A stretch of DNA of 32,705 bases from Candidatus Gastranaerophilales bacterium (GTDB lineage: Bacteria; Cyanobacteriota; Vampirovibrionia; Gastranaerophilales; Gastranaerophilaceae). Below, in pieces: positions 5,028-27,350 of this stretch (its first letter is position 1; the number at the start of each line of letters is the position of its first letter). The translations under genes were made by a program, and so were the position numbers. The notes beneath the pieces are model-generated. The model was not told where the DNA came from. It saw nothing but the letters and a program-made list of their open reading frames with translations, and made no database searches. The DNA is taken from assembly GCA_947628355.1 (NCBI GenBank), contig CANQZO010000001.1, positions 1 to 32,705 of the forward strand, given 5' to 3'.

Positions 5028-6038
5028 CTATAAATTAAGTACCAGCGCTCTGTCATAAAACTCAAACGCAATTTTTTCCTGCTCGCAGCGGTTTCTTATA
5101 TACCTTAATAAATCTTTTACATATTCCGGCACTTCGCCATTTTGACGAACAAACCATTTTTCCTCTATATCCGCTATTAAATATTTGACTCCCAATTTAT
5201 TTATACAAAGCTCAAGCCATTTATCTATTTCTTCTTTTGTATCGTTTACGTTAGGAATTATTATATATTTTACCCCTAAAGAAGTCGGATGGTATTTTGC
5301 TGCCGATTTTGCATAAGCCTTGATGTTTTTGCAGACATCATTAAACTTATCAACCTTTTTTACTTTTTTAAATACTTTCCGTGTCCCTGCGTCAAGTGAT
5401 ATAACTATATGAATATCAACATCTTTCTCCTCAAGCACTTTTGCAGACATTTTACTGTATTTTATACCGTTTGTATAAAGTGCATAGTGCTTATTTCCGT
5501 ATTTCGCAAAAAGTTTTATTATATCATCAAACTTTTTCAATATTACAGGCTCGCCCATTGCAAAGGAAATGTGAGCTCCCGGAGCCTTTTCCAGATTATA
5601 TATTTTATTATTCAGCATTTCTTTAAATAACGGGAATATATCATATGGCTTGTATGTTCTGTGCTCCAGTATCTCTTGATAAGAAAAACAATATATACAG
5701 TTGGCATTACATTCGTTGGAATGCCCAATCCATATCATATCAATGTAATTATCAAGGTCTGATAAAAATTGTTCTTCTGAATTTTCATCAAATTCCTCAA
5801 TCCAATGACAGCCTTGGCAAAATGGCGGAATTTCACCGTTTCTCATATTTTTTACTAGAGTATTTTTTATTTCAAATACTTTGTTCCAATCCGCTTTATC
5901 TTTCGGCCCGGCATATGGGATTATATAATTATTGTTTCTTTCTTTTGGTGAATGTATTGAAAGATGACAATGCCTGAAACAATCATAATGTATATACAGC
6001 CCATGGGCTAAATATCTGCACCTGTACATCTTTCCCAT
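5028..6038 (-). CDS. Radical SAM enzyme, class A paralogue A5
   Basis: Motifs CNANCIYC, FAMGEP, SLDAGTRKVFKKVKKVDKFND and KYIIIPNVNDT. The start is placed at ATG 6038 (MGKMYRCRYLAHGL) because AAGAGGA sits 5 nt upstream. The track start at 6092 adds 18 unconserved residues. Confidence 0.85.
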   Translation of the reverse strand: MGKMYRCRYLAHGLYIHYDCFRHCHLSIHSPKERNNNYIIPYAGPKDKADWNKVFEIKNTLVKNMRNGEIPPFCQGCHWIEEFDENSEEQFLSDLDNYIDMIWIGHSNECNANCIYCFSYQEILEHRTYKPYDIFPLFKEMLNNKIYNLEKAPGAHISFAMGEPVILKKFDDIIKLFAKYGNKHYALYTNGIKYSKMSAKVLEEKDVDIHIVISLDAGTRKVFKKVKKVDKFNDVCKNIKAYAKSAAKYHPTSLGVKYIIIPNVNDTKEEIDKWLELCINKLGVKYLIADIEEKWFVRQNGEVPEYVKDLLRYIRNRCEQEKIAFEFYDRALVLNL

Positions 6039-6095
6039 AATTATCCTCTTTTTTAGAATTATATCATAATTTATTTTTATGTTATATTTCATTTT

Positions 6096-7631
6096 GTGAG
6101 AAATATTTTACAAAATAGGTTATTTTTCAATTTTGTAAATATTGTTATATTATTGGCAATATTTGTTTTTCTTCTGACCAAATTAAAATATTCCGTTATT
6201 ATTAATGACGATATGATGGATATTATATCCCGAACATTTTTGTTTTCGCATGGTCGCTTTATATCTGAATTATTCGGCATTTTATTAATTAAATTAATTC
6301 CCGATATTCTTGGTATAAATTATCAGGATTTTGCAATTGTTCAAGGTATATTAAAATCTGCAGTTTTTTGCGGTTTGATTTATGTCATTTCCATCGCGCC
6401 TTTTAGATTTAGACAAAAAAATATCAGTATTTGTTGTTATTCTGTTTTGTCCTTTTTTACAATTTTTTCTTCATTGATACAAATGGATTTTGTATGGTGT
6501 TTTGATACTTATCAGTTTTTTTCCGGTTATGTGGGATATTTATTTGTATATATTATTTTTTGGTATAAAATTGCGGATAATTATTTAAAGAATAAATCAC
6601 TTTCAAAAAAAGATTTAATTGTAATCTGCCTGCTTGCTTTTATTACGGCTCAAATTAATGAACTGTTAAGTATTAGTTGTACGCTTTTATTAATCCTTTT
6701 GTTATTTGATTCGTATATATCAAAAATAAAAGATAAAAAATATATAATTTATCCGTTAGTCGTCATTTTATTAACTGATATATTTGTTTATTTTTGTCAA
6801 GGCTCAAAAGAATTATGGGAATCTTATCAACTTTCAAATTATAATTTAATCTCATATTCGGAAATAATAAATTTTATTATTTTATTTTTTAAAAAAATAA
6901 TATTATATAATGCTTTTTTAATTGTTCCGATTTTTTGTTTCTTAGTATTCTTATATAAGATAAAAGAAATTAAAATAATTAGATATTTTATATATTCCAA
7001 TACAGGTTTTTTATTCTTCATACTTGGAACATATTTCCTTCCAAAAACATGTATTTATACTCAGCTTTCGGATAAATGGTGGTTTTTACATCCCGGAATA
7101 ATGATCGGTTATAATATATTTCTGCTTGTGTCGGCTTTATTTTTATTGGGAGTTATAAATGCAAAAACAACAAATGTTATGACAAAAAATTTATTTACTA
7201 TTGCATTGTTTTTATGTTGTTTAATTCATTGTTTTATTAATTTTAATATTGACAGAATAATGTGCCTTCATACATATATGCATACAAAAAGAATGATGTA
7301 TATAAATGATAAACTTTCATTGTTTTATTTAAAAAGAGGAGAAACAATAATATTACCTGCAGGACAACCATTTTATATACTTCCCGATGTCAATCCTTAT
7401 GATTTAGCCATATCAAGAAAATTTCATTCCCAAACTTTTGATAAAAATCGTGCAAGATATTTGATTTATCTGGAAAAAAATTACAATGTTAATGTTGACA
7501 GCGGAGTGACGTTTAAAGATAATAAAACAGCGATGAAAGAATATCTGGGTAAGGGCGGCACTTTTACGAGAGATGAACTTAAAAAATTAAAATTTTCTAA
7601 TATTAAAATGTCCGAGAAAATTTCGCAATAA
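6096..7631 (+). CDS. Polytopic membrane protein P1 (GT-C-like candidate; paralogue of P2 and P3)
   Basis: 511 aa with about a dozen hydrophobic spans by eye. KYSVIINDDMMD (DD at nt 6207-6212) directly follows TM1, then HGRFISE. There is a conserved NE block mid-protein and a conserved roughly 100 aa hydrophilic C-terminus (GG.FT..EL..L.FSNI). GTG start without a clear SD, so the start is uncertain. Confidence 0.75.
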   Translation: MRNILQNRLFFNFVNIVILLAIFVFLLTKLKYSVIINDDMMDIISRTFLFSHGRFISELFGILLIKLIPDILGINYQDFAIVQGILKSAVFCGLIYVISIAPFRFRQKNISICCYSVLSFFTIFSSLIQMDFVWCFDTYQFFSGYVGYLFVYIIFWYKIADNYLKNKSLSKKDLIVICLLAFITAQINELLSISCTLLLILLLFDSYISKIKDKKYIIYPLVVILLTDIFVYFCQGSKELWESYQLSNYNLISYSEIINFIILFFKKIILYNAFLIVPIFCFLVFLYKIKEIKIIRYFIYSNTGFLFFILGTYFLPKTCIYTQLSDKWWFLHPGIMIGYNIFLLVSALFLLGVINAKTTNVMTKNLFTIALFLCCLIHCFINFNIDRIMCLHTYMHTKRMMYINDKLSLFYLKRGETIILPAGQPFYILPDVNPYDLAISRKFHSQTFDKNRARYLIYLEKNYNVNVDSGVTFKDNKTAMKEYLGKGGTFTRDELKKLKFSNIKMSEKISQ

Positions 7632-7649
7632 AAATATAATGGAAGTAAT

Positions 7650-9194
7650 ATGCAAAAAAGATTAGTCATAAAATTTTTTAATGTAACATTATTATTTTCA
7701 ATTTTTAGTTTTTTGATGTATAAATTTCGATATGCTATTGTTATCAATGATGATTTGGTTGATTTAATTGCAGGTCAATATAATTTTTATCATGGTCGTT
7801 ATTTAACGGAATTTATTTCAATTTTATTTATAAAATTAATACCTAAATATTTTAATATTAATATTCAGAATTTTGCAATTGTATCAGAAGGTCTTGTTAA
7901 ATCTTTATTTTTTATATTTTTATTATTTATCTTAAAAAAGACCTTTACCAAAAATTGTAAAATCTCAACTTTATTTGAAATTATTTTGTATCCGTTGTCG
8001 TTTTTTATGATATTTTCGATGTTATTTCAACTTGATTATATTAATGTATTTGATACAATGCAAACCTTTATGGGCTATATTTTTCCGTTTATTTTCTTTA
8101 TACTTTTCTGGTTGAAATTATACGATGTTTATTCAGTTAACAAAAAATCTGAACTTTCTTGTGGCTGGAATAATAAAAACTTAATTTTGCTTATTCTATA
8201 CACAATTATTGTAACTATGGGAAATGAAGAACTCAATTTTGCAGCATTAATTTTACTGTTATTTTTATTATTTAATAAAAGTATGTCCCGAAAATATGTT
8301 ATATGTTCATTAATTGCAATGTTTATAACAGGATTTTGGGTTTATTATTCAAGCGGCTTTTTAAAATTATATAATGATGCATATCATATTCATATAAATT
8401 TTGATTTGTCTTTAAACAATATTTATAAATATTTGGAAATGTTTATTAAATTTATAATTGCAGATAATATATTTTTATGGATACCATATGTTTCATTCAT
8501 TATATTTTTAAAGGCGGATAAAACTAATATAAACAAACAAAAAATTATAAAATATAGTTTTTATTCCGTAACAAGTTTTTTAATATTCTTTTTAAGTTTA
8601 TATTTATTAGGTAAATCTTATGGTTATATGATTGATAATAATTTTAAACTATATGAACCGTATTGGATTTTATATCCTGCATTACTGATAGGGCTTAAAA
8701 TAATCTTATACACTAATATACTTTATTTATTGGGAAATATCTTAACTCCGGACGTAAAAATTTATAAAGAATATATATTATATTTTATATTTTTAATCAG
8801 TTGTTTATTTTTTATATTCCAAAATTACAAGAATATTGAATTATCAGATAAAAACTCTAAAACTGTAATGTATATGACTGATAAAATTGCCGTTGAATAC
8901 TTTAAACAAGGTAAAACAGCAATATTGCCAAAGGATGATATTGAAATAATTATACCCGTAATAAATGATTTAATGCCCTATGATTTATTAACGGAAAATT
9001 ATAAGGGGAAAATATATTACAAAGAACAATATCCATATTTGTGGTACATAAGGATTGTATATAATGTTAATACCAATTACGGTATGATGTTTAAACCATC
9101 CGAGCAAGCGATGGAAGATTTTTATAAAATCGGGGGTGATTTTACAAAAAAAGAATTGGATGTTTTGGATTTTTCTAAATTGAATGTAAATTGA
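7650..9194 (+). CDS. Polytopic membrane protein P2 (GT-C-like candidate)
   Basis: 514 aa. RYAIVINDDLVD (DD at nt 7749-7754) follows TM1, then HGRYLTE and GNEELNF. The C-terminal block YNVNTNYGMMF...GGDFTKKELDVLDFSKLN aligns with P1 and P3. GGAAG lies 5 nt before the ATG. Confidence 0.8.
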   Translation: MQKRLVIKFFNVTLLFSIFSFLMYKFRYAIVINDDLVDLIAGQYNFYHGRYLTEFISILFIKLIPKYFNINIQNFAIVSEGLVKSLFFIFLLFILKKTFTKNCKISTLFEIILYPLSFFMIFSMLFQLDYINVFDTMQTFMGYIFPFIFFILFWLKLYDVYSVNKKSELSCGWNNKNLILLILYTIIVTMGNEELNFAALILLLFLLFNKSMSRKYVICSLIAMFITGFWVYYSSGFLKLYNDAYHIHINFDLSLNNIYKYLEMFIKFIIADNIFLWIPYVSFIIFLKADKTNINKQKIIKYSFYSVTSFLIFFLSLYLLGKSYGYMIDNNFKLYEPYWILYPALLIGLKIILYTNILYLLGNILTPDVKIYKEYILYFIFLISCLFFIFQNYKNIELSDKNSKTVMYMTDKIAVEYFKQGKTAILPKDDIEIIIPVINDLMPYDLLTENYKGKIYYKEQYPYLWYIRIVYNVNTNYGMMFKPSEQAMEDFYKIGGDFTKKELDVLDFSKLNVN

Positions 9195-9214
9195 ATAAAT
9201 GCTAATATTTGTTT

Positions 9215-10600
9215 ATGAAATACAAAAGTTGCAGATTATTAGAACATGGCATTTATATATATCTGGACCCCGGAACAGGACAGTTATGTGCAGGTCACTG
9301 CTGCAATAGCGATCATTTGGATTTTAATGACAGATTATATATATACCCCGATTTAAAAAAAGAAAATTTAAACTGGGATTATGTTTTTTCTGAAAAACGA
9401 AAATTAAAAGAAAACGCGAAACAAGGGATTTATCCTTTTCAATGTGAGGGCTGCTTTGAACTTCAAGAGCGTGATTGGGATGATGAGGATTATATTAATC
9501 ATTTAACGGCAGCTCATATAATGAAATGCAATTCACGCTGTATATATTGTCCTACGGGAAGAATACCGGAATGGCACAATAGGGAACAGGATGTTGACTT
9601 AAAACCGTTAGTTGAAGAATTATTGAACAAAAATTTGTTGAAATTTAACGGCTCGCTAAGATTTGTCGGCGGTGAACCTACTTTAATGAAAGAATTTGAT
9701 TGGCTGGTTGATTTATTTTCGGCTCATAATGTTCCTGAAATATACGTTCCGACTTCCGGAATAAGATTGTCTAAAAGCCTTTGCAATGCATTAGAAAAAG
9801 TTGAAAGTGCAGCAATAGTTGCAAGTATTGACTCAGGGAGTAAAGAAACCTTTGAAAAAATTAAGGGTACTAAGTTTTTTAATCTTGTTATGAAAAATAT
9901 GAAAACATATCTAAATCATGCCCGCTTAAAAAATTTTGTAATATTAAAATATATTCTTCTTACAGGATATAATGACAGTGCAAAAGAAATTGACAGGTGG
10001 CTTAAAAATTGCGCGGATATGGGTATTGTTGAAGTTCAGTTTGACAGTGAGCATTCCGTTTCATCTTCGGAAAATTGTGAAAACAAAAAATACATAAACC
10101 GTACACTAAAAATGCTGAAATACGCTGAGCTAAAAGCGAAAAAATATAATATAAAAGTTACTTCATTTTTAGCATTTATGAACAGAGCACAAAAAATTTA
10201 TGAAAAACAATTGGCATTTTATAATCAAAATCAAAACAAATTTATTGATTTAACTGATTTTGAGATTGATTATAACAAATATTATAAAGACCTTTATATC
10301 AATATTGATAAAGATTTTAATTGTCTGGAGGATATAGATAAACTTATACAAGATGACAGATTTTCACCTTTGCGCAGAGCATTTTTAACTTCTGATTATA
10401 AAGAGATAACAAAATCGCCGAATTTTGAAAAAACTGTTAAGTCTTTATTAAGGCTCGGTTTTGATTTGGATTTTACGACAAGCAAATATACAGATACGAT
10501 TAAAGAAATATTAAAAACAAGTTTTTCGACTGTTAAATTAAAGAGAAATTATTTTAAATTTTTTAGAAGAAAAGACAAGTTTATGGGTAATATGATTTAG
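9215..10600 (+). CDS. Radical SAM enzyme, class A paralogue A6, with a roughly 130 aa C-terminal extension
   Basis: 461 aa from ATG 9215 (MKYKSCRLLEHG). Motifs CNSRCIYC, RFVGGEPTLMKEF, SIDSGSKETFEKIKGTKFF and LKYILLTGYNDS. The region after about nt 10175 has no counterpart in the other class A copies. Confidence 0.85.
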   Translation: MKYKSCRLLEHGIYIYLDPGTGQLCAGHCCNSDHLDFNDRLYIYPDLKKENLNWDYVFSEKRKLKENAKQGIYPFQCEGCFELQERDWDDEDYINHLTAAHIMKCNSRCIYCPTGRIPEWHNREQDVDLKPLVEELLNKNLLKFNGSLRFVGGEPTLMKEFDWLVDLFSAHNVPEIYVPTSGIRLSKSLCNALEKVESAAIVASIDSGSKETFEKIKGTKFFNLVMKNMKTYLNHARLKNFVILKYILLTGYNDSAKEIDRWLKNCADMGIVEVQFDSEHSVSSSENCENKKYINRTLKMLKYAELKAKKYNIKVTSFLAFMNRAQKIYEKQLAFYNQNQNKFIDLTDFEIDYNKYYKDLYINIDKDFNCLEDIDKLIQDDRFSPLRRAFLTSDYKEITKSPNFEKTVKSLLRLGFDLDFTTSKYTDTIKEILKTSFSTVKLKRNYFKFFRRKDKFMGNMI

Positions 10601-10653
10601 AAAAAATTTAGTAAATAAAATAAATCCTAATTTTATTGTGATAAAATTTGTAT

Positions 10654-12225
10654 ATGAAAAATATTTTATCAATGTGGAATAAAAATAAATTTTTTTGTTT
10701 TTTTTGTACTGTATTTACTGTAATTACTTTATCTATATTATTTATAAAAAATATGAATTATGCAGTAGTTTTCGATGATGATATAAAAGACACTTTCGCA
10801 AATCGTTATTCACATTATCGTTATCTTACCACTTGGTTAGTTTTCTTTTTTGTGAAAATATTACCTGCCAATCTTAATATACATATCCAAGAATTTTCTT
10901 TTGTTTCTGAGGTTCTTTTTAAGGTTGTTTTATTTTCATTAATAGTTCTATCTATAACTTTTTCATTTTTTAGATTTAACAAAAATTATATTTTATTTTC
11001 GATTATTTATTCTATTACATTTTTTTTGGCTTATTCGCTGCCAAATTTGGTTTCATATAGGCCCTACTTAGAAGTTAACATATTTTTTATCGGTTATTTT
11101 TTTCCTATCGTTTTTTTTATTTTGTTTTGGTATAAAATGAGTGATTATTATATTGCTTGTGATTTAACTTCAAATAAATTATCTAAAAAAGAAAAATTTA
11201 TATTGTTTTTTTATTCTGTGCTGATTTTTCAAGGGAATGAAATTCTTTTATTTATATCTTCAATTTTTTCTTTCCTTTTATTTATAGATTTATTTATATT
11301 TGAAAAAAATAAAAATTTTGAAAAAAATAAATATGTTTTATTCCCTTTAATATCTTTTTTAATTATTGACATTTTTATATTGTTATTCCCTGGTGATATT
11401 ATTACAGATGTTTATAATATATCTTTTTATATACCAAATATTCATGAAATAAAAACTTTTGCTAATTTATTTTGGATAAAAATTTTTTACGAAAATATGT
11501 ATTTATGGATTTTAAATATAATCGGAATTTTATTATTACTTAAAATTGATGATAAAGGAAATAAACATAGAATTTTAAAATTTTGTTTATTTTCTTACTT
11601 AAGTATTTTAATAATTTGCGTTTCATGTTTATTTTTAGCCCCTAATTGTCCATATACCGAATATAAAATAAAATCATGGATACTTTGCCCTCATATAATA
11701 ATGCAGGTAAAAATGCTTTTATTTTTAATATGTTTATATATCTCCGGAATTTTGACTGTTTCTGAAATTAATATATTTAAAAAACTTCGATATTTTAATT
11801 ATTTTTTAATAACAATTCTTTTGATTAGCTGTATTATTTATTTAATTCCTTTTTTTAAATATACAGAATTAAGAACTTATTATAATCCTCAAATGAAGAA
11901 ATTATTATATATTTCTGATAAAATATCATTATTTTATTTAAAACAAGGAAAGACAATTATTTTTCCGTATAATAAATATATCCAAAATTCAATATTAAAC
12001 GTAAACATTTCGGGTTCATTAGAAAATTATAATAATGAAATTTTTCATAAAACTGATGATGTCGCTTATTTAAAATACCTTGAAATAATATATAAAATTG
12101 ATACTTCACCCGGAATTATGCTTATGGATACCGATAAGGCAATCTCTTTATATTTTAAAAACGGAGGGCGGCTTACAACAAAGGAAATTGAAAATATGGA
12201 TTTTTCTAAATTAAACAATAACTAA
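10654..12225 (+). CDS. Polytopic membrane protein P3 (GT-C-like candidate)
   Basis: About 523 aa from ATG 10654. NYAVVFDDDIKD (nt 10774-10782) follows TM1, then QGNEILLF. The C-terminal block YKIDTSPGIMLM...NGGRLTTKEIENMDFSKLN aligns with P1 and P2. Confidence 0.8.
   Translation: MKNILSMWNKNKFFCFFCTVFTVITLSILFIKNMNYAVVFDDDIKDTFANRYSHYRYLTTWLVFFFVKILPANLNIHIQEFSFVSEVLFKVVLFSLIVLSITFSFFRFNKNYILFSIIYSITFFLAYSLPNLVSYRPYLEVNIFFIGYFFPIVFFILFWYKMSDYYIACDLTSNKLSKKEKFILFFYSVLIFQGNEILLFISSIFSFLLFIDLFIFEKNKNFEKNKYVLFPLISFLIIDIFILLFPGDIITDVYNISFYIPNIHEIKTFANLFWIKIFYENMYLWILNIIGILLLLKIDDKGNKHRILKFCLFSYLSILIICVSCLFLAPNCPYTEYKIKSWILCPHIIMQVKMLLFLICLYISGILTVSEINIFKKLRYFNYFLITILLISCIIYLIPFFKYTELRTYYNPQMKKLLYISDKISLFYLKQGKTIIFPYNKYIQNSILNVNISGSLENYNNEIFHKTDDVAYLKYLEIIYKIDTSPGIMLMDTDKAISLYFKNGGRLTTKEIENMDFSKLNNN
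11299..11334 (+). repeat. In-frame 18-bp tandem duplication inside P3 (FEKNKN/FEKNKY)
   Basis: tttgaaaaaaataaaaat (11299-11316) is followed directly by tttgaaaaaaataaatat (11317-11334), 17/18 identical. Confidence 0.7.
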
Positions 12226-12232
12226 AATGCAA

Positions 12233-13261
12233 CTATTTTTTATTTCCGAAAATAAAATGCAGTTCAGAAAGCAATCTTGTCACAGGTGATACTTTTCTGC
12301 AGTTATAAACTTTATTTTCAATTATGGCGTCAGCCCAGGGCTCTATTTGAAGTTCAAATCCCAGCTTTTTTGCCTGCTGTTCAAAATATGAATACGCTTT
12401 TATAACTGATGATTCTATTACTTGATTTTTTGTTGTATCCATTTTGCTTTCATGGTGGTTAACTGCTCTTGCAACAGTTTTTACTCCTGCAGTTTTGCAG
12501 ACTTCAAAAAAATTATCTATTTCTTTTTTATTATCATTTACGTTCGGGAAAATAATATATTTTAACTTTACTCTGTTTGATTTATCCGCGCTTTCAAAAA
12601 TGTATTTTTTTATTGTTTTAATGACTTCATCAAATTTATCAACTCTTTTAATTCTTTTATAAGTTTCCCGGCAGCCGCAATCAAGCGAGATACAAATGGT
12701 ATTATGATTATCCGCTTTTAACATTTCGCTTATAACGCTTTCATATTTTATTCCGTTAGTTAATACCTCCATTCTGCAGTTTTTAGATAAAAGAAGTTTA
12801 ACAATAGCAGGAAATTCCTCAAGCATAGTCGGTTCCCCGCCCATAAACGCAATAAATGAGTCTTTGTTTAATCGGCCTTGATTTATTAATTTTTCAATAA
12901 TCGGCAGAGAGTCATAATCATCACTCTTTTTTACTCCGTCATGAAAGTCTGAACCTACGGAGCAGTAAAAACATGCTGCATTGCAGTGCTTCCAGTTAAA
13001 TACGGTTATTTTAAATATTTTACCGTCAAATTCTTTCCAATCCTGCTCTTTTAATTCGGGGCATAACTTGCAGCGCTCGGGGATTATTCCCTGTTTCATT
13101 TCTTCAATGATTTTTAATCTTCGCTCTTCATTTTTTTCAAACGCATTTTCCTCGCCGTAGTGGATATACTCGGGTCCCTCCCATACTTCATTACAGTATT
13201 TAAAGCCGTTAAATCCTAAATCTATACTTCCTAATATATGGTTACAGCATTTATATTGCAT
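12233..13261 (-). CDS. Radical SAM enzyme, class A paralogue A7
   Basis: 342 aa. Motifs CNAACFYC, AFMGGEPTMLEEF, SLDCGCRETYKRIKRVDKFDE and KYIIFPNVNDN. N-terminal KCC...YC...CKLC. GGGAG lies 7 nt before the ATG. Confidence 0.9.
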   Translation of the reverse strand: MQYKCCNHILGSIDLGFNGFKYCNEVWEGPEYIHYGEENAFEKNEERRLKIIEEMKQGIIPERCKLCPELKEQDWKEFDGKIFKITVFNWKHCNAACFYCSVGSDFHDGVKKSDDYDSLPIIEKLINQGRLNKDSFIAFMGGEPTMLEEFPAIVKLLLSKNCRMEVLTNGIKYESVISEMLKADNHNTICISLDCGCRETYKRIKRVDKFDEVIKTIKKYIFESADKSNRVKLKYIIFPNVNDNKKEIDNFFEVCKTAGVKTVARAVNHHESKMDTTKNQVIESSVIKAYSYFEQQAKKLGFELQIEPWADAIIENKVYNCRKVSPVTRLLSELHFIFGNKK

Positions 13262-13331: not shown

Positions 13332-15263
13332 ATGAGCGAAAATTATGCAATTTGCACGTTTCCTTTTAACGCCGCACAAATAAGCATGCAAGGTGATGTT
13401 TATGTCTGCTGTCCTCCGTGGAGCAGCTCATATTCATTCGGGAATATATACGAGCAGAGTTTTGACGAAATATGGAACGGAGACCGTGCAAGAGAATTTC
13501 GCAGGCAGTTCATTAATAATGATTATAAATATTGTAAACTCGATTTATGCGTTAAAGATTGCGCGCAAAAAATAATTCCGTCAGAAACGGTTGAAAAGCC
13601 TAAAACTTTTATATTCTGCTATGATACCATATGCAACGTGAAATGCATCTTTTGCCGCAGCTGTCACCAAAAGCAGGATTTATCTTATTTTGATGAACAC
13701 ATGGATGAGATAATCTCAAATATGCTTGAAAATGCGCAAAATGTTGTTCTGTCAGGAGTAGGAGAGGCTTTATTCAGTCCGCATTCAAGAAAACTTATAA
13801 AGCGAATATCGGAGATGTTCCCTAATATTAAATTCTCACTTATTTCAAACGGAATTTTATGCGATGAAGAAAATTTAAAAGAACTCGGTATAATTGATAA
13901 ATTGCTTTCAATAACTGTTTCACTCCACGCCGTTAAAAAATCAACTTATGATAAACTTGTTAAAAACGGTGATTTTGACAAGGTTATGGAAAATTTAAAA
14001 TTTCTGTCACAGCTAAAGCAAAAGGGCAAACTCGACAGATTTATTTTAAATTTTGTCGTTACTTCGTGTAATTACCGAGAAATGAGCGATTATATTAAAA
14101 TGGCTGAAAAACTCGGCGCAACTGTTGGTTTTTTGGAACTTTTAAAACTTGAAACTAATGAAGATGTTTATAATGAACTTAACATATTAAATGAAAATCA
14201 TCCTAAGTATAACGATTTTGTAAGGGTTATGAAAAACCCTATATTCCGCTCCTGCAAATGTACAATTAACGATACAATGCTTAATTTAAGACCAATTGAT
14301 AAACCAAATAAAATAGTAAAATATTTTAGCATTTTTATCACTAATATTCTTATAATATTTTTATTATTGTATATATTAAATTTCTTAATTTATTTTAGGA
14401 CATTTAAAAATGATATAAATAACAATAATTTTAATGATTTTCGCTCAATTTTAACTCAATATAAAAATTTTATGTCACAAGATGTTAGTCGTAAAAATAC
14501 TTATGATATTCTTATAAATGATAAAGATAATTGGTATAGAAGAATAGAAAATAAAACTTCCTCAAAACCTTCAATAGTTTTATTTGGCTGTTCTTTTGTA
14601 TGGGGAACAAATTTAGAAGATAATAAAACATTTTCATATCAACTGGGTAAGCTGACAAAGCGTCCTATTTATAACAGAGCCTTAGGGGGTTGGGGTGTTC
14701 AACACATGCTTTATCAACTTCAGCAAGATGAATTTTATAATATCATAACTTCAAAATCCCTCCCCCCTCAATATGTAATTTACACTTTTTTTAGAGGACA
14801 TTATACAAGAATTGTTACCTCAGATGCATTGTATAGTATGCCCTGCTATTTAGTATTTTATAAACACAAAAAAAATGGGGAATTTGTATTAAAAAATAGA
14901 AGTTTTTTTAATTCGAAAATTATAATACATCATTTTATAATTCATGACATTATTATTCCACTAATAGAAAATAAAAAATCATATCAATCCTACATTGATG
15001 AAATTATGTTTGATTATTTAATGGCATCAAAGAAAGAACTTAATAAACACCTTCCAAATACAAAATTTGTAATATTCTTTTATGACGAGCCGTATACACA
15101 AGATATAATTAGAAAATTAGAAGAAAATGGTTTTATTATTATATCTAATAATGATATGGGAATTAATCAGAAGGAATTAAAATATATTTTATCGGATAGA
15201 CATCCCAGTGCATTATATTGGGAGGAAGCGACACCCAAAATTATAAAAAAACTACATTTATAA
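13332..15263 (+). CDS. Fusion protein: class B radical SAM (B1), single TM helix, SGNH/GDSL-like domain (S1)
   Basis: 643 aa. The N-terminus CTFPFNAAQISMQGDVYVCC...FGNIYEQSFDEIWNGDRAREF...CKLDLCVKDC is a twitch/SPASM-like pattern. CNVKCIFC is at nt 13632-13655. The hydrophobic segment YFSIFITNILIIFLLLYILNFLIYF spans about nt 14322-14396. LFGCSFVWG has G-C-S at 14586-14594. ALGGWG and SDRHPSALYW match SGNH blocks II and V. AGAGG SD. Confidence 0.85.
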   Translation: MSENYAICTFPFNAAQISMQGDVYVCCPPWSSSYSFGNIYEQSFDEIWNGDRAREFRRQFINNDYKYCKLDLCVKDCAQKIIPSETVEKPKTFIFCYDTICNVKCIFCRSCHQKQDLSYFDEHMDEIISNMLENAQNVVLSGVGEALFSPHSRKLIKRISEMFPNIKFSLISNGILCDEENLKELGIIDKLLSITVSLHAVKKSTYDKLVKNGDFDKVMENLKFLSQLKQKGKLDRFILNFVVTSCNYREMSDYIKMAEKLGATVGFLELLKLETNEDVYNELNILNENHPKYNDFVRVMKNPIFRSCKCTINDTMLNLRPIDKPNKIVKYFSIFITNILIIFLLLYILNFLIYFRTFKNDINNNNFNDFRSILTQYKNFMSQDVSRKNTYDILINDKDNWYRRIENKTSSKPSIVLFGCSFVWGTNLEDNKTFSYQLGKLTKRPIYNRALGGWGVQHMLYQLQQDEFYNIITSKSLPPQYVIYTFFRGHYTRIVTSDALYSMPCYLVFYKHKKNGEFVLKNRSFFNSKIIIHHFIIHDIIIPLIENKKSYQSYIDEIMFDYLMASKKELNKHLPNTKFVIFFYDEPYTQDIIRKLEENGFIIISNNDMGINQKELKYILSDRHPSALYWEEATPKIIKKLHL

Positions 15264-17358: not shown

Positions 17359-18294
17359 ATGAAAAAGAAAATTTTAAATGTCTTAATTATAGTTGTTTCT
17401 TTAATTGTAATTATACTTTTAATTAATTACGGATTGTATTTATATTTAATTAATACAAATAAAATTGATAAATCGCAAGTTTCTGCTTTTATCAGAAAAA
17501 ATATAACACCTGAAAATATGTTAAACCTTAAATATAGAAATCCAAGCGGATTGAATTATAAAAATAAAAAATCAATAGTAGTTTTTGGCTGCGGGTATGC
17601 TGAAGGTGTTGACTTAAATGATAATCAAACATTTGAAAAAAAATTATCAGATTATTTAAAAGTTCCTGTTTATAATCAAGGAATGGGCGGCGGTTTTATT
17701 CAACATACTATTTTGGCAGTACAAAGCGGTCAGATGAATGATATTATAAAAAAGAGTAATATTGCAGTTTATATTTTGCCGACTCTAAACGATTCCATCA
17801 GATTAAAAGTATTCCCAGACAGAAACTATTTTAGTCCGACATTTTTATACTCAAAAAATTTATATCCTGTTTTTGAAGAAAAAAATGGACAACTGGTTTT
17901 AAGAAATTCTAAATTTCCGTCATTTACAGGAAATACTTTTAACAGACTTTTGACTAAATTATATTTTCAAAAAAAATATTTAAATAAGGGTAATTTACTA
18001 ACTAAATATACAGCTCAGCACTTTGTAAAATTAAATAATGAGTTAAAAGCAATTAACCCTAATATCAAACTTGTTGTAGCAATTTTTTGGGATTTAGAAC
18101 AAAATACCCGTGAATTTAATAAATTAATGCAAGATGAAAATATTTCGATTATACATATTGGTAATATAAGTAAATCAATTAATGTTGATTTAGCAACAGA
18201 TGAATATAGAACGGAACAAAATAAACATCCGAATGAAAAAACTTGGGATGTTTTAACACCTCTGATTGCTAAAGAACTAAAAGCAATAAAATAG
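17359..18294 (+). CDS. Membrane-anchored SGNH/GDSL-like protein S2 (degenerate catalytic motifs)
   Basis: 311 aa with an N-terminal signal-anchor (KKKILNVLIIVVSLIVIILLINYGLYLYLI). VVFGCGYAEG has Gly where the paralogues have Ser. GMGGGF is present. C-terminal NKHPNEKTW lacks the Asp found in the paralogues. AAGAGG SD. Confidence 0.6.
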   Translation: MKKKILNVLIIVVSLIVIILLINYGLYLYLINTNKIDKSQVSAFIRKNITPENMLNLKYRNPSGLNYKNKKSIVVFGCGYAEGVDLNDNQTFEKKLSDYLKVPVYNQGMGGGFIQHTILAVQSGQMNDIIKKSNIAVYILPTLNDSIRLKVFPDRNYFSPTFLYSKNLYPVFEEKNGQLVLRNSKFPSFTGNTFNRLLTKLYFQKKYLNKGNLLTKYTAQHFVKLNNELKAINPNIKLVVAIFWDLEQNTREFNKLMQDENISIIHIGNISKSINVDLATDEYRTEQNKHPNEKTWDVLTPLIAKELKAIK

Positions 18295-18308: not shown

Positions 18309-18338
18309 ATCGGCACATTTCTAATGTGCCGATTTTTT
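18309..18338 (+). terminator. Rho-independent terminator closing the + operon (B1-S1, A8, B2, S2)
   Basis: A perfect 11-bp stem, ATCGGCACATT (18309-18319) with AATGTGCCGAT (18323-18333), has a 3-nt loop and is followed by TTTTT. It starts 15 nt after the S2 stop. The hairpin also lies just 3' of the convergent S3 gene, but a minus-strand transcript would have no U-tract. Confidence 0.75.
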
Positions 18339-19260
18339 ATATTTTTGTTAATTCATTTGCTATTGTGGGAATTAAACTATCCCAATATTTTTCATTAGGA
18401 TGAAAATCATTATCAATACACCATTTGCTGCGAGTATTTATATCCATAACTTCAATTTTGGTTAATTTAGGAATATCTATTACATTATAATTTTTTAATA
18501 TGTTATTTTCAAAGTCGAATTCGGATGAAAATTTTACTATTACAAATTTAGAGTTTGGAAATAAAGTTTTTATTTCTTTATCAATTGATAATAAATATAA
18601 ACTGAATAATTGTTCTATGTATTTATTATAACCAATGCTGGTTATATAATTATAAATTAAAAAACTGTAAAAATATGAATTTTCTAATATTAGAGGATTT
18701 TTTTGAAGTAATTTTTTATTTTTAATTTTATAAAATATTTCCATCTCATCTTTAAAAGTAGGTGTTACACGCATAATCATACGTCTTATATGGTCGGGAT
18801 TATAAAAATATAAAATAAATTCGGGTTCTTTTTTTATTGATTGCTTAAATTTACTATATTGGAGAAGGTAATATATTTGATTTAAACCACCTCCTGGATA
18901 TGCAAAATTATATACAGGTCTTTTTAATTTTTTTGATATTTTATATGCAAAAGTTTGATTTTCATTTAATCCTACTCCATACGCCATTGAACATCCAAAT
19001 ACAATTATTGCTTGGGGAGGGGTATTTCTATAGTTTTGACCGTAATATTTGAATGAAAATAAATTTTTGTTATTTAACGGAAAACGAATTGATAAATCTT
19101 TTTCAAAACTCTTTGCTTTATAAAAACTTAAAAATTTGAATGTACTAATTTCACAAGGAAAAATTGTTAATAATTTTTTATATGATACAAATTCAATAAT
19201 AAAAATTACCATAAAAATAAATGTAATATTAACTAAAACTATTGAAAATAAGCGTTTCAC
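18337..19260 (-). CDS. Membrane-anchored SGNH/GDSL-like protein S3
   Basis: 307 aa with an N-terminal anchor (FSIVLVNITFIFMVIFIIEFVSY). Motifs IVFGCSMAYGVG, YPGGGL and DNDFHPNEKYW. GTG start at 19260 with AAGGAG 6 nt upstream, embedded in the last codons of A9. Confidence 0.65.
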   Translation of the reverse strand: MKRLFSIVLVNITFIFMVIFIIEFVSYKKLLTIFPCEISTFKFLSFYKAKSFEKDLSIRFPLNNKNLFSFKYYGQNYRNTPPQAIIVFGCSMAYGVGLNENQTFAYKISKKLKRPVYNFAYPGGGLNQIYYLLQYSKFKQSIKKEPEFILYFYNPDHIRRMIMRVTPTFKDEMEIFYKIKNKKLLQKNPLILENSYFYSFLIYNYITSIGYNKYIEQLFSLYLLSIDKEIKTLFPNSKFVIVKFSSEFDFENNILKNYNVIDIPKLTKIEVMDINTRSKWCIDNDFHPNEKYWDSLIPTIANELTKI

Positions 19261-19261
19261 T

Positions 19262-20257
19262 TTATTCTCCTTGATGTAAGCCTATTCCTACATCTAAATC
19301 CTTCCCTTTTAAAGTTCTGTATTGATTTGCGACACCGTAGAATTGAATATCCAGACCGCGCTGTTTTACCGCAGCAACAATATAATCGTACAAATCATCA
19401 ATATAAGCGGGAATGTTATTTGAATTTCTTGCAAGCCAATCAGCTTCAAAATCAATTATTACTCGTTGAATACCCACCCTTTGAGTTTCATCAAGCCATT
19501 TATTAACGTCTTCTTTTGTGTCATTTACTTTTGGAATAATTATATATTTGGAACGCACCATTTTTTTATTACTGCCCTGAGCTTTTACGTATTTCTTTAA
19601 AGTGTCCATGACCTTATTATAAGCGTCAATTTGCTTTATTTGTTTAAATTTCTGCCTATCCCCGCAATCTACACTTGCAGTTACTGATAATGTATCTGTT
19701 TTAAGTCCATTTAAAACAGATTTAACAGGTTTTATGGCATTAGTATGAACCATTATATTTTTTTCGCCCTTTTTTATAAAGAAGTTTGTTATATCATCAA
19801 ATTCTCTTAAACTTGCAGGCTCGCCTCCGGAGTATGCCAGTTCTCCGGAGTAATCGATTAACCCCATTTTATCAAGTTCTTTTATTATAGGCATTATTTT
19901 ATAGCGTTTTTTTGGTTTTTCAAAATCTGATGCAAGACGGTAGCAGTATGTGCAATTGCAGTTGCATTCTGACCAGTGTGCTATTTGTATCCATTTGAAT
20001 TTTGTATTATCATCCCAGTCTTGTTCTGTCAATGCAAAGCAGCCTGTGCAATGGCTGTCAATTATTCCTTTTTTAAAGTTTTTTCTGATTTCATTAATAT
20101 TGGAAAGAAGTTCATTCCAATTTAATTTTTCACCCCAGTAGTCTTTTTTTATAAATAAAGGCTCGGGGGTATTATTTCCCATAAAACAACAAAGTTTTAT
20201 TGAATTGTATTCAAACCTTAATCCGTTTTGTATGTTTGAACAACTAATATATCTCAA
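19262..20257 (-). CDS. Radical SAM enzyme, class A paralogue A9
   Basis: 331 aa. Motifs CNCNCTYC, AYSGGEPASLREF, SVDCGDRQKFKQIKQIDAYNK and KYIIIPKVNDT. TTG start at 20257 (the (M)RYISC N-terminus matches A1, A6 and A8), with GGAG upstream. Confidence 0.85.
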   Translation of the reverse strand: MRYISCSNIQNGLRFEYNSIKLCCFMGNNTPEPLFIKKDYWGEKLNWNELLSNINEIRKNFKKGIIDSHCTGCFALTEQDWDDNTKFKWIQIAHWSECNCNCTYCYRLASDFEKPKKRYKIMPIIKELDKMGLIDYSGELAYSGGEPASLREFDDITNFFIKKGEKNIMVHTNAIKPVKSVLNGLKTDTLSVTASVDCGDRQKFKQIKQIDAYNKVMDTLKKYVKAQGSNKKMVRSKYIIIPKVNDTKEDVNKWLDETQRVGIQRVIIDFEADWLARNSNNIPAYIDDLYDYIVAAVKQRGLDIQFYGVANQYRTLKGKDLDVGIGLHQGE

Positions 20258-20283
20258 TGTTTTTTCTCCGTATTTACAATATA

Positions 20284-21255
20284 TTATTTTAAAAGTTTTA
20301 ATTTGTCAGTGATTAAATTTGTAATTTCAATCCAACATCTTTCATTAGGGTGCCCGTCATTAGGAATATGATATTGGTCCCACTTTCTTTCTATATCCTT
20401 AATATAATCTTCCACTTCAACAAACATGATATTTTCTTTTTCAAGTTCTTTCCATCTTGGTGAATGTGTAATTAAATCTGTATCGGGTTCATCATGGAAC
20501 GATATTACAATCATTTTTATATTCGGGTTTATTTGCTGCATTTCTTTTTGAATGGTTAAAAGATGCAGTTTTAGATTATCAAACATATAATCTTGAACAT
20601 ATTTATTATTTAATCGTGTAAGTATCTTTGCATACCAAGTTTTTTGAATATATTTATATAAATAAGAACCTTCAAGTACCGGCAGGTATGATTTATGCAA
20701 TATTAATTGTGTATTATTTTTTGTCTTTTTTACATCATACTTTGGCCAAACAAACTGTGTTGCAAATCCGTTAGAATTACTATGAATTCTCCATACATGT
20801 TCTCCGATTAATATATATATAACGTAATCACTTTTTTTGATAATGTCATCTATTTCATGTGAGCGAATACGCATTATCGGAAACTGCGGACTTTGACCGG
20901 AACTTGAAAAATTATATACGGGTCTTTTTAATCGTTTTGATAATTTATAACCAGGTTCTTGCGTAGATGATAATAATGCCCCATATCCATAAGAACATCC
21001 AAACATTATTATAGCATTTTTATTATATTCCAGTCCTGATGGTTTTCTTATTTCATAGTATTTTTTTGATATTTCATAATCCATTAATTTTCTTTTTAAA
21101 GTATATGGATTGTTTTTCAAACTTAACTGAACCGGAACTCTTTCCAGCTTGTTATAAAAATATTTATAAATAACCCAATTTAATAAAAATAATATACCTA
21201 TAGATATAATAATATTCACAAGAATTATTATAAAAATTTTTTTATATTTGTCCAT
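20284..21255 (-). CDS. Membrane-anchored SGNH/GDSL-like protein S4
   Basis: 323 aa with an N-terminal anchor (IFIIILVNIIISIGILFLLNWVIY). Motifs IMFGCSYGYG, SSSGQS and PNDGHPNERCW. Confidence 0.65.
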   Translation of the reverse strand: MDKYKKIFIIILVNIIISIGILFLLNWVIYKYFYNKLERVPVQLSLKNNPYTLKRKLMDYEISKKYYEIRKPSGLEYNKNAIIMFGCSYGYGALLSSTQEPGYKLSKRLKRPVYNFSSSGQSPQFPIMRIRSHEIDDIIKKSDYVIYILIGEHVWRIHSNSNGFATQFVWPKYDVKKTKNNTQLILHKSYLPVLEGSYLYKYIQKTWYAKILTRLNNKYVQDYMFDNLKLHLLTIQKEMQQINPNIKMIVISFHDEPDTDLITHSPRWKELEKENIMFVEVEDYIKDIERKWDQYHIPNDGHPNERCWIEITNLITDKLKLLK

Positions 21256-21272
21256 TAATTATTCTCTTTACT

Positions 21273-21301: not shown

Positions 21302-21307
21302 TAGTAT

Positions 21308-25450: not shown

Positions 25451-26446
25451 TTAATTTAGAAATTCTTTTAAACTGTTATATTCGCTATATTTCTCGGCAA
25501 TCATAAAATAAACGGGAAGATTTACGTTATATTCTTTTGCAAGCTCAATTACTATGAAAAACAAGAAGTCTATTTCTGATTTTTGACCTATTTTCATATC
25601 ATTTAAAATGGAAGAATAAACATTTGCATCATCACGTTCTTTATATTTTTCAAAATTAGAATAATATTCTTCAAGAAACCCATCTCTTACGTTAATATTT
25701 ATAGCTTTAGCAAGTATTAAAAGTTCACTGCAGAGTTTTTTAAATGTTTCTTCTTTTTCTCCGGTTATTTGATGGGCATTTATATCATAATAAATACAGC
25801 ATGCTTCAAAAGGCGAGCGCGTAATGAGGCGTTCAAACGCAAGCTCTAAAAATTGCTTTTCGGTAATTAAATGAGTATCCATGCCTGTTTGAGTAAAGTC
25901 TTCTTTTATTTGATTAAGAATTTTATTATCAATGTTATTGTGCGGTGCAAATTGAAACTCAACATATTCGCGCTGCTGGAGGTATTCGGCATCATTTCTG
26001 TTATACCAGCGGCATTTGCCTACAAATACGGAATTAAGAACATTAATATTTTTTAATTTTCTGCTTAAAGCATAACCCATACCAAATCCGTTTGCTATAG
26101 AGGTTACAATTGTTTTTTTATGCGAAATACGCTCAATAAACGGCACGGCAGATAAAATATCCGGTGTCCTGATACATAATATTATTACATCAGCTTTGCC
26201 CTTAAACTGTTCTTGAGTTTGTATTTTTACTTTATATCTTTTATCACCTTTTACATTTGAAATTAGTCTAATTCCGCCTTTTTCTTTTGCATTTTTTATA
26301 ACTGACTCATACTTTGAAATTAATGTAACATTTTTTCCCGCTGAATGCAGGAAGCAGGCAAAAGTTGCTCCTGTTGAGCCTGCGCCTATAACTACGTATT
26401 TTAATTTCTTATTAAAAAAATTTATTATACTCATTTTTTTAATCAT
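25451..26446 (-). CDS. ApbA/PanE-family (ketopantoate reductase-like) NAD(P)-dependent oxidoreductase
   Basis: 331 aa. N-terminal Rossmann motif KYVVIGAGSTGATFACFLHSAGKNVTLI, then ADVIILCIRTPD and SIANGFG, as in 2-dehydropantoate 2-reductase family proteins. ATG 26446 overlaps the S5 stop (ATGATTAA); ATG 26434 is an alternative start. Confidence 0.6.
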   Translation of the reverse strand: MIKKMSIINFFNKKLKYVVIGAGSTGATFACFLHSAGKNVTLISKYESVIKNAKEKGGIRLISNVKGDKRYKVKIQTQEQFKGKADVIILCIRTPDILSAVPFIERISHKKTIVTSIANGFGMGYALSRKLKNINVLNSVFVGKCRWYNRNDAEYLQQREYVEFQFAPHNNIDNKILNQIKEDFTQTGMDTHLITEKQFLELAFERLITRSPFEACCIYYDINAHQITGEKEETFKKLCSELLILAKAININVRDGFLEEYYSNFEKYKERDDANVYSSILNDMKIGQKSEIDFLFFIVIELAKEYNVNLPVYFMIAEKYSEYNSLKEFLN

Positions 26447-27350
26447 CTAAATGTTTTATAATATAGGGCAACATTTTATCCCAATAAAGCTCACCGGGAT
26501 GACATTCGTCTTTTGCCAGATATTCTTTTTCAACATCAGGTCTGGCAAATATAAAACCTGATTCTTTTTCCAGATTTATTATTTTGTATTTTGATAAAAA
26601 ATAATTTTGCGGAAAATCTTCAAGCTGAATAATTATAAATTTTGAGTCCGGATATAGTTCTTTTAAACCTTTAGATATGGAGTCTAAATATAAAATTGCG
26701 AAATTGTTGATACGAGTATTTATGAAATTAACAATTTTAAAATGCCCGTATAAATAATTATTTAGGAAATACAGGTTTTTGATATAATCTACAAAATACA
26801 TATATTCAAATATTGAGAATTTTCTTAATTTTAATTTCCCGTGATCATTTTTATAATAAATTTGAAAATGATCATGATTTTGCCAAGATGCATCTTGGTA
26901 CATTCTTCTTTTATGATCATCCATCCAAAAATATAAAATATATTTTGGCGGTATTTTGACATTTTCTTTTATATAACCTGTTTCTAAAATATTATATGTG
27001 TTTGCAAGACCGCCTCCCGGAACTCCAAAGTTATACACAGGCATATTCAGTGCTTTATTTAATTTAGCTGAAATCGTTTGATCATCGTCTAAAGCATAAC
27101 CGTATGCTATAGAACATCCTAAAACAAGAATGGAGTTTTTTTTGTTTTTTGCATCATAAAATTTTGCATTATACATTTTCCAATTATTGTGCGGATAGAA
27201 ATTAAGAAAAGCAAATTTTATATTATTCCCGCTTTTAGTATTAGATTTGACTTTTGTATAAAATGTAACAGTTTCAATAATAAAAATAGCAAAAACAAAT
27301 ATTATAAAATTAACTAGTATAATTAATGAAATCTTTTTTAATTTATTCAT
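26439..27350 (-). CDS. Membrane-anchored SGNH/GDSL-like protein S5
   Basis: 303 aa with an N-terminal anchor (ISLIILVNFIIFVFAIFIIETVTFY). Motifs LVLGCSIAYGYA, VPGGGL and KDECHPGELYW. Confidence 0.65.
   Translation of the reverse strand: MNKLKKISLIILVNFIIFVFAIFIIETVTFYTKVKSNTKSGNNIKFAFLNFYPHNNWKMYNAKFYDAKNKKNSILVLGCSIAYGYALDDDQTISAKLNKALNMPVYNFGVPGGGLANTYNILETGYIKENVKIPPKYILYFWMDDHKRRMYQDASWQNHDHFQIYYKNDHGKLKLRKFSIFEYMYFVDYIKNLYFLNNYLYGHFKIVNFINTRINNFAILYLDSISKGLKELYPDSKFIIIQLEDFPQNYFLSKYKIINLEKESGFIFARPDVEKEYLAKDECHPGELYWDKMLPYIIKHLDD

Follow-up and report, generated by a model that had tools for sequence, protein, structure and literature searches.

Introduction

In three-component periplasmic glycosylation, a nucleotide sugar supplies a glycosyltransferase family 2 (GT2) polyprenyl-phosphate sugar synthase, the lipid-linked sugar is flipped across the membrane, and a variable transferase of the glycosyltransferase C (GT-C) class completes the transfer, as in GtrA/GtrB/GtrC (Shigella, Salmonella phages), ArnC/ArnE-F/ArnT, CsbB/GtcA/YfhO and PgfS/PgfM1/PgfE/PgfM2. 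Lipopolysaccharide (LPS), teichoic acids, arabinogalactan and proteins are all decorated by GT-C enzymes, which determine serotype, sensitivity to phages and resistance to drugs. Here we describe three paralogous membrane proteins, P1, P2 and P3, encoded in tandem within a 32,705-nucleotide stretch of DNA from a Candidatus Gastranaerophilales bacterium (contig CANQZO010000001.1, positions 1 to 32,705; G+C ~28%), the whole of which we call the 32.7-kb window. We consider it likely that P1-P3 are integral membrane glycosyltransferases of GT-C(A) fold, Gtr/Arn-like in action, belonging to an unmodelled family that is distantly sister to Pfam DUF6056.

GT-C(A) enzymes have in common a module of transmembrane (TM) helices 1-7, in which two juxtamembrane helices (JM1 and JM2) separate TM1 from TM2 and the JM1 tip bears an essential aspartate; in AftB the catalytic residue is D62 of a DD motif, and 11 TM helices accompany a periplasmic C-terminal domain (PMC12041299). 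The solved enzymes AftB (GT89), AftA (GT85), PglB/STT3 (GT66), ArnT (GT83) and DPY19 (GT98) fall in the same fold class as P1, sharing with it the TM1-JM1-JM2-TM2 layout and an acidic residue at the JM1 tip, yet have no detectable sequence similarity to P1-P3 and reach TM-scores of only 0.36-0.45 with the P1 model, and the C-terminal domain of PglB and the Emb proteins is much larger. P1-P3 are, in this sense, a new sequence family within a known fold class. DUF6056 (PF19528) is the sole family with detectable sequence-profile homology to them, as well as their best viral fold match. Its proteins, however, are 424-456 aa long and lack the conserved C-terminal soluble domain (~120 aa) of P1-P3, and the members we examined are phage-borne accessory genes (temperate phages infecting Firmicutes or archaea), whereas P1-P3 form chromosomal paralogue arrays.

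Among the three-component systems, the series ArnA/ArnB/ArnC/ArnT is paralleled in relatives of P1 by a cluster comprising a Gmd-like gene, an aminotransferase, a short GT2 and a GT-C gene; and, as in gtr loci, it is the membrane transferase whose type and number change from strain to strain, against a conserved set of cytoplasmic genes. Unlike in those systems, we identified no flippase resembling GtrA or ArnE/F, the window has no GT2, and up to four GT-C paralogues per locus are interleaved with radical S-adenosylmethionine (rSAM) genes, a combination that we did not find in the literature.

Three tandem paralogues and their conserved motifs

P1-P3 and their conserved sites lie as follows. 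Comparison loci are labelled L001-L023, mostly from other Gastranaerophilales metagenome-assembled genomes (MAGs), and L024, from Oenococcus phage phiS13; residues are numbered as in P1.

6096..7631 (+): P1, an open reading frame (ORF) of 511 aa; predicted GT-C(A)-fold polytopic membrane protein, P1 clade
7650..9194 (+): P2, an ORF of 514 aa; paralogue, P2 clade, 40% identical to L001_a
9209..10600 (+): 463-aa type-B radical SAM protein between P2 and P3; C-terminal extension of ~130 aa; Pfam Radical_SAM E 1e-12
10648..12225 (+): P3, an ORF of 525 aa; the paralogue that has diverged furthest, no other copy seen exceeding 32% identity with it
6207..6212 (+): codons of D38-D39 in P1 (7749-7754 in P2, 10777-10782 in P3); acidic pair DD, proposed catalytic, at the start of the first juxtamembrane helix by the alignment of 66 members and the AlphaFold2 model
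6249..6260 (+): H52-G53-R54-F55 in P1 (7791-7802 in P2, 10813-10824 in P3); HGR loop between the two juxtamembrane helices, from the alignment
6657..6662 (+): N188-E189 in P1 (8223-8228 in P2, 11236-11241 in P3); second conserved acidic site, in the (I/G)NE(L/E/I)L block at the outer end of TM5/TM6
7242..7628 (+): residues 383-511 of P1; C-terminal alpha/beta domain, predicted extracytoplasmic, best-conserved part of the family

The three paralogues and the intervening rSAM gene are all co-directional, with gaps of 18, 14 and 47 nt. P1, P2 and P3 are homologous end to end (P1/P2 36% identical, P1/P3 28-29%, P2/P3 31-32%), with BLASTP E-values of 1e-44 to 1e-80 that are far below chance expectation; ORFs and end-to-end alignments together bear out an earlier note on this DNA, which had described three tandem paralogues of roughly 510-525 aa in one operon with an extended rSAM enzyme. 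Every shared motif listed in that note was also located in P1-P3. The string (N/D)DD..D stands immediately after TM1 in all three; HGR(F/Y) reads HGRF in P1, HGRY in P2 and, in the variant form, HYRY in P3; (I/G)NE(L/E/I)L follows; and GG.(F/L)T..E(L/I)....FS is common to the C-termini. The soluble C-terminal domain is conserved as claimed, at a length of about 115-130 aa and not ~100.

To place these residues in the wider family, we used an alignment of 66 diverse members (profile A4). Position 38 is acidic in 59/66 (D in 51, E in eight) and position 39 in 60/66 (D in 57, E in three); G53 is kept in 55/66 and E189 in 57/66. Most of the invariant residues sit in the C-terminal domain, namely Y402, K406, Y411, Y458, Y463, A479, G487, G488, E494 and F500. 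Three family members of 746-828 aa carry C-terminal tetratricopeptide (TPR) repeats and have HDH or HDY in place of DD; we count the TPR-bearing members on the side of a glycosyltransferase function.

Predicted fold and topology

The AlphaFold2 model of P1 (predicted local distance difference test, pLDDT, 86.9; predicted template modelling score, pTM, 0.88) opens with TM1 (residues 8-29), followed by a short helix (38-45) starting with D38-D39, a second one (55-72) and TM2 (81-99); an alpha/beta domain begins at about residue 395, after the last TM helices. The "about a dozen hydrophobic spans" counted previously resolve in the model into 11 membrane-spanning helices plus interfacial helices. 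The model agrees helix for helix with the published description of GT-C(A) enzymes (PMC12041299), and D38-D39 provide the conserved Asp/Glu at the JM1 tip, on the extracytoplasmic side, where they may serve in catalysis.

Against the Protein Data Bank (PDB), a Foldseek search with the P1 model gave 157 matches at E <=10, of which 50 are listed. Ranks 1-12 are all GT-C enzymes, comprising PglB (E 0.02, probability 1.0), AftA, STT3, AftB, human OST-A, DPY19, EmbB and ArnT, with probabilities of 0.35-1.00 (>=0.75 except for one DPY19 chain) and TMq of 0.27-0.45; below rank 12 the matches are unrelated membrane proteins with TM-scores of ~0.1, that is, noise. MBOAT, AT3, Wzy, WaaL or SEDS structures are absent from the 50 listed. 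The GT-C fold proposed in the earlier note is hence upheld by its top 12 matches and by the lack of MBOAT, AT3 or Wzy among the matches listed, in a result which speaks to fold class and not to family membership.

Topology was read from the loops of the model, where lysine and arginine residues number 10 in 36 residues on the N-terminal side and nine in 128 on the DD side, with P2 and P3 alike. By this tally the N-terminus is cytoplasmic and DD, E189 and the C-terminal domain lie outside, in agreement with the outward-facing DD motif previously deduced from the positive-inside rule. Within the P1 clade, P1 and its counterpart in L005 are 76% identical over the first external loop (EL1), 63% over the C-terminal domain, 49% over the TM helices and 31% over the inside loops; that the outward-facing parts are conserved better than the TM helices and the cytoplasmic loops is in line with an active site at the outer face.

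Homology to DUF6056

When the P1 model was compared with predicted viral structures, Foldseek returned one significant match (E 2.5e-4, probability 1.0), a 445-aa protein of Oenococcus phage phiS13. The sole 445-aa coding sequence in the phiS13 record is AHB80411.1, a member of DUF6056 (71 bits vs a cutoff of 27). By profile alignment (hhalign), the 66-member profile matched the phiS13 protein alone at 48% probability, and matched alignment A6, made of three verified DUF6056 proteins, along 203 columns from TM1 to TM7 with a probability of 95.3% (E 2.4e-8). In the latter register DD falls on DD, and the Glu of N188-E189 on the E of the DUF6056 motif GTEQ. Direct matches to PF19528 are absent in P1-P3 and weak in 3/66 family members (best E 0.068), falling short of the 27-bit threshold, whereas the genuine DUF6056 members checked score 59-71 bits. 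Apart from these three weak matches, the membrane part of the 66 members has no Pfam match. None of the curated GT-C models (PMT, PMT_2, STT3, arabinosyltransferase, GT87, YfhO etc.) matched P1-P3 at E <0.1, and no curated GT-C Pfam model matched any of the 66 members at E <=1. Given the profile-profile homology, P1-P3 are placed by sequence comparison as an unmodelled sister family of DUF6056, set apart by the extra conserved C-terminal domain.

In phiS13 (L024 39615-41921; KF183315), the DUF6056 gene immediately precedes one annotated "bactoprenol glucosyl transferase" (GT2), in the attR-proximal accessory region. Because the two genes adjoin, DUF6056 may, by analogy, be the GtrC-like component of a serotype-conversion module of Gram-positive phages. 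A homologue in Enterococcus phage VEsP-1 (QYI86532.1) carries the annotation "O-antigen conversion protein C", its gene standing between those for lysin and integrase. Our literature search found no test of DUF6056 in such a role, and the link to P1-P3 gives this family a testable function, that of GtrC-like partner of a bactoprenol glycosyltransferase.

Distribution of the family and gene context in relatives

In a scan of one genome per species, relatives of P1 occurred only in Candidatus Gastranaerophilales MAGs (Melainabacteria/Vampirovibrionia) from animal guts. A word-indexed protein search yielded eight relatives besides P1, and the same type of search with the 66-sequence profile returned known close relatives only, since AT-rich words of low complexity had filled its candidate list. 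When 1.84 billion cluster representatives were searched exhaustively by profile, 425 clusters scored at E <=1e-3 and 55 at <=1e-30, and all family members inspected have the amino-acid composition of low-G+C organisms. No P1-family relatives were found by tblastn of P1 against 50,697 phage records or in a scan of IMG/VR viral contigs. The family is invisible to sequence searches of Pfam, NCBIfam and PDB, as a result of which these genes go unnamed in Gastranaerophilales genomes.

The gene for P0007, a protein 42% identical to P1, belongs to a cluster made up of a Gmd-like gene (GDP-mannose-4,6-dehydratase-like; TIGR01472, 389 bits), the GT-C gene itself, a B12-rSAM gene, a WbuC-like cupin, a DegT/LegC-like aminotransferase and a GT2 of 233 aa. 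In NCBIfam, the best matches of this GT2 are sub-threshold and mostly polyprenyl-phosphate glycosyltransferases (AglJ, PgfS, PpgS, ArnC, dolichyl-phosphate (Dol-P)-hexose transferase). A polyprenyl-phosphate-linked donor is thus indicated indirectly, by the short GT2 of that type near P0007 and by the GtrB-type bactoprenol glucosyltransferase gene beside the phiS13 DUF6056 gene. The earlier statement that GtrA/GtrB-type or other glycan partner genes are lacking holds in the window and fails in the lineage, where relatives have Gmd/aminotransferase/GT2 clusters. Gmd-like genes also adjoin GT-C paralogues in L001, L007, L008 and L015.

A compact sugar cluster (Gmd, GT-C, B12-rSAM, cupin, DegT, GT2) is present without the rSAM island in L012-L014, where P1-clade genes occur without partners of the SGNH hydrolase fold. 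In L021 an rSAM island is flanked on its two sides (at 1073-2062 and 19897-21554) by this Gmd-like gene and by the same B12-rSAM/cupin genes (84-95% identical), and at its edge is a GT9 heptosyltransferase gene; by virtue of this bracketing and of the GT9 gene, the island is embedded in a glycan cluster. As the island is bracketed in L021 and the cluster compact elsewhere, the block of type-A and type-B rSAM genes (defined below) seems either to have been inserted into an envelope-glycan locus or to have been lost from one.

Distant members, at 17-36% identity to P1, occur as single copies in conserved housekeeping surroundings, away from rSAM genes, in the contexts RuvC / IF-2B-like / GT-C / Skp(OmpH), YbeY / DgkA / GT-C, and GidB / GT-C. 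In view of these single copies, the P1-P3 family is a lineage-wide expansion. The housekeeping-site and TPR-bearing members are:

L016 10001-11794
L018 10001-11665
L009 9944-11488
L010 6920-8419
Proteins P0093, P0100 and P0120

A variable slot, and purifying selection on P1

In the window, P1-P3 occupy a slot between two conserved rSAM genes:

5028..6092 (-): type-B rSAM, left border; orthologues 81-97% identical at the same position in L001, L004, L005, L007, L008 and L011
12233..13261 (-): type-B rSAM, right border; orthologues 74-95% identical

Across MAGs the slot between these border genes holds one to four GT-C genes of differing classes, which include the P1 clade (35-75% identical), the P2 clade, two further clades (one with ED/SD) and P3 as a class by itself. 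Orthologues of the 463-aa rSAM (461-478 aa, 68-87% identical) adjoin a P1-clade gene in L001, L004-L008 and L021-L023. Strains accordingly differ in which paralogue classes are present, and clusters at 90% identity have 32-98 members for rSAMs vs one to eight for GT-C proteins. As the copies represent old paralogue classes, one to four per locus, sequence comparison makes it plausible that the three tandem genes reflect diversification of specificity, as previously suggested; the classes probably differ in donor, acceptor or linkage.

Between the window and L004, synonymous divergence (dS) is alike for all genes (0.50-0.79; P1 0.56). P1 and its L004 orthologue have a nonsynonymous divergence (dN) of 0.13 and dN/dS of 0.23; the ratio is lower in the flanking rSAMs (0.03-0.07) and in the 463-aa rSAM (0.10). 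A dN/dS of 0.23 at the dS of its neighbours marks P1, on these sequence estimates, as a working gene under purifying selection that evolves faster than the genes around it. Diversifying selection on P1, whose ratio exceeds the 0.03-0.10 of its neighbours, was considered and set aside, as the extra change falls mainly in TM helices and cytoplasmic loops, and not in the outward-facing parts.

A search for promoters and terminators over 5800-12500 gave signals no stronger than in shuffled sequence in this AT-rich DNA. The divergent rSAM gene at 5028-6092 (-) and the start of P1 (6096, +) are separated by 3 nt as called; comparison with paralogues puts the likely start of the rSAM 18-21 codons inward (MGKMYRCRY...), leaving ~60 nt for both promoters, and no convincing promoter or Shine-Dalgarno signal was seen in this gap. 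Poly-G tracts, Rfam matches and long exact repeats were not found, the repeats detected being diverged paralogous coding sequence only, and hence nothing points to phase variation, to invertible segments or to recent gene conversion.

Proposed function and alternatives

Taken with fold, topology and the gene neighbourhoods of relatives, P1-P3 probably act as Gtr/Arn-like periplasmic glycosyltransferases. Under this proposal a nucleotide sugar would be made and tailored in the cytoplasm, in relatives by the GDP-mannose-4,6-dehydratase-like enzyme together with the aminotransferase; a GT2 enzyme would load the sugar onto polyprenyl phosphate, and the lipid-linked sugar would be flipped across the membrane, to be bound by the GT-C protein at the outer face of the cytoplasmic membrane. 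There, D38-D39 at the JM1 tip would be catalytic, E189 and the HGR loop would bind the donor (we propose that the HGR loop contacts its phosphate), and the C-terminal extracytoplasmic domain would hold the acceptor of sugar transfer. The acceptor is most likely a cell-envelope glycoconjugate, whether LPS or another surface glycan, of this diderm bacterium.

Several observations weigh against this interpretation. The AlphaFold2 model of P1 was built on an alignment of 11 sequences, and its PDB matches have weak E-values (0.02-0.4) and TM-scores <0.5. Scans of P1-P3 with Pfam, NCBIfam and PADLOC gave no match, such that no GT-C or other model reaches them, and profiles A2 and A4 of the family, run against PDB sequences, gave noise only. 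An hhalign comparison of the family profile with a single E. coli ArnT sequence also gave nothing, although this test is insensitive and we do not regard it as evidence against a GT-C fold. D38 may be the counterpart of the catalytic Asp in solved GT-C enzymes by its secondary-structure position and by the hhalign register with DUF6056, rather than by residue superposition, and one paralogue class in other loci has a degenerate motif, with ED or SD instead of DD. In the window, family scans of the encoded proteins found no GT2, GtrA-like/flippase or sugar-nucleotide gene, and a neighbourhood of rSAM genes is no known context for GT-C enzymes. Finally, the function of DUF6056 is itself unproven, the single paper found on this family reporting weak to negligible anti-phage activity for one member.

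A GT-C fold would also suit enzymes that resemble PglB, WaaL or Wzy in transferring or polymerising a preassembled oligosaccharide from polyprenyl diphosphate to protein, lipid A-core or a growing chain, which we consider unlikely here. PglB, the top fold match in the PDB, is an oligosaccharyltransferase, and STT3 comes next, in line with such a role, yet the ~120-aa C-terminal domain is far smaller than the periplasmic domain of PglB/STT3, and no WaaL, Wzy or SEDS structure is among the fold matches listed. TPR repeats, which some members bear, often bind protein partners, and the L021 island borders an LPS heptosyltransferase gene; but an initiating phosphoglycosyltransferase, Wzx or Wzz was not seen in any locus examined, and both the pairing of the closest relatives (DUF6056) with a GtrB-type monophosphate-sugar synthase, and the resemblance of the GT2 near P0007 to Dol-P / undecaprenyl-phosphate (Und-P) sugar synthases, point instead to a donor carrying a single sugar on a monophosphate. 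Quite unlikely, in our view, is that P1-P3 are not glycosyltransferases at all, and have retained a GT-C-like fold as membrane scaffolds, exporters or receptors for rSAM products, for example a modified lipid or small molecule. Such a role would account for a setting among ~20 rSAM genes, in which the 463-aa rSAM always adjoins a P1-clade gene in island loci, for a window without a glycan gene, and for the loss of the DD pair in one paralogue class. It accords poorly with the acidic pair, E189 and the outside-facing parts being the best conserved features, with P1-clade genes that also occur in a plain sugar-nucleotide/GT2 cluster without the type-A/B rSAM block, and with family members at housekeeping sites where rSAM genes are not nearby; nor does any transporter fold rise above noise in Foldseek.

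The presence in the same island of four single-pass SGNH paralogues and an rSAM-TM-SGNH fusion prompted a further idea, that P1-P3 are MBOAT/AT3-type acyltransferases passing acyl groups to the four membrane-anchored SGNH proteins, in the manner of AlgI/AlgJ, PatA/PatB, DltB/DltD or OatA-like systems. We rejected it on fold, and hold it to be highly improbable: the top 12 fold matches are all GT-C, with no MBOAT/AT3 among those listed; none of the 66 members has an MBOAT or Acyl_transf_3 Pfam match; the conserved residues are acidic and outward-facing, with no conserved membrane-embedded His of MBOAT type; and P1-clade genes in L012-L014 lack SGNH partners. The expanded family has housekeeping copies beside Skp or DgkA as well as one to four island copies. 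Its location in a sugar-nucleotide cluster that ~20 rSAM genes interrupt suggests an unusual envelope glycan, which in these uncultured gut bacteria would bear on interactions with host immunity and with phages.

The radical SAM and SGNH island

More surprising than the GT-C paralogues themselves is the rSAM/SGNH island around them. The window has 20 rSAM genes in 32 kb (886-32705, which is all but 138-806), on both strands and with almost no intergenic DNA. Sixteen of the 20, the 463-aa protein included, are of a "type B" (about 330-370 aa) with an N-terminal Cys4 array (C~6, C~23, CxxC~67-70) before CX3CX2C, and the other four are of a "type A", whose N-terminal domain is of SPASM/twitch kind and matches the BtrN twitch at E 1e-5. 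The type-B profile matches generic rSAM cores only (SkfB, BlsE, GDGT-MAS, TYW1, MoaA). PADLOC pVip matches of the rSAM neighbours were discarded, being confined to the generic rSAM core. Orthologues in other Gastranaerophilales MAGs keep the same order, at 65-98% identity, and are publicly named only "radical SAM protein". Literature searches on DUF6056, on Gastranaerophilales with radical SAM, on radical SAM with GT-C, and on N-terminal SPASM domains found no description of this locus.

The SGNH-like features of the island are:

13332..15263 (+): 643-aa fusion of a type-A rSAM (N-terminal SPASM/twitch), a TM segment (~330-352) and an SGNH-like domain, from scans and alignments
17359..18294 (+): membrane-anchored SGNH-fold paralogue; block I G-C-G, nucleophile Ser -> Gly
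18337..19260 (-): membrane-anchored SGNH-fold paralogue, from paralogue alignment
20284..21255 (-): membrane-anchored SGNH-fold paralogue, modelled (AlphaFold2 pLDDT 72.6); NCBIfam LA_2486 SGNH E 9e-4
26439..27350 (-): membrane-anchored SGNH-fold paralogue, from paralogue alignment

The four separate paralogues are of ~310 aa with one N-terminal TM helix, are 24-33% identical, and had no match in a Pfam scan. In Foldseek, the model of 20284-21255 matched GDSL esterases at E 9e-7 (TesA, TM-score 0.70-0.74) and gave 45 matches at E <=1e-3, all matches listed being GDSL/SGNH esterases, lipases or acyltransferases. Block I reads G-C-S instead of G-D-S in four of five copies, the Cys being invariant, and a His lies in an invariant "HP" near the C-terminus. 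Model and motifs together assign a predicted SGNH/GDSL fold to the four ~310-aa proteins and to the C-terminal half of 13332-15263. The fusion would join a cytoplasmic Fe-S enzyme to an extracytoplasmic esterase/acyltransferase domain in one polypeptide. The same rSAM-TM-SGNH fusion is found in L006 (3733-5676; 647 aa, 69% identical), and in L001, L007, L008 and L011 the orthologue of its rSAM part has no SGNH domain, SGNH-like genes being separate.

Tentatively, and as a possibility that we would not yet expect to prove correct, the GT-C paralogues might be the extracytoplasmic step of an undescribed envelope-glycan pathway, in which the ~20 rSAMs tailor GDP- or polyprenyl-linked sugars by radical chemistry, the several GT-C proteins install the differing products, and the membrane-anchored SGNH enzymes, of which one is fused to an rSAM via a TM helix, finish the glycan outside. 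If true, this would be a new way to build a chemically unusual, strain-variable surface in non-photosynthetic relatives of cyanobacteria.

The island also includes an ApbA/PanE-type 2-dehydropantoate-reductase-like gene at 25451-26446 (-), 69-81% identical in L005, L007, L008 and L015. The last rSAM ORF (31747-32705, -) is listed at 262 aa as the window ends and is in frame to base 32703 by tblastn; since it is open to that base, the island reaches the right contig edge, and probably passes it.

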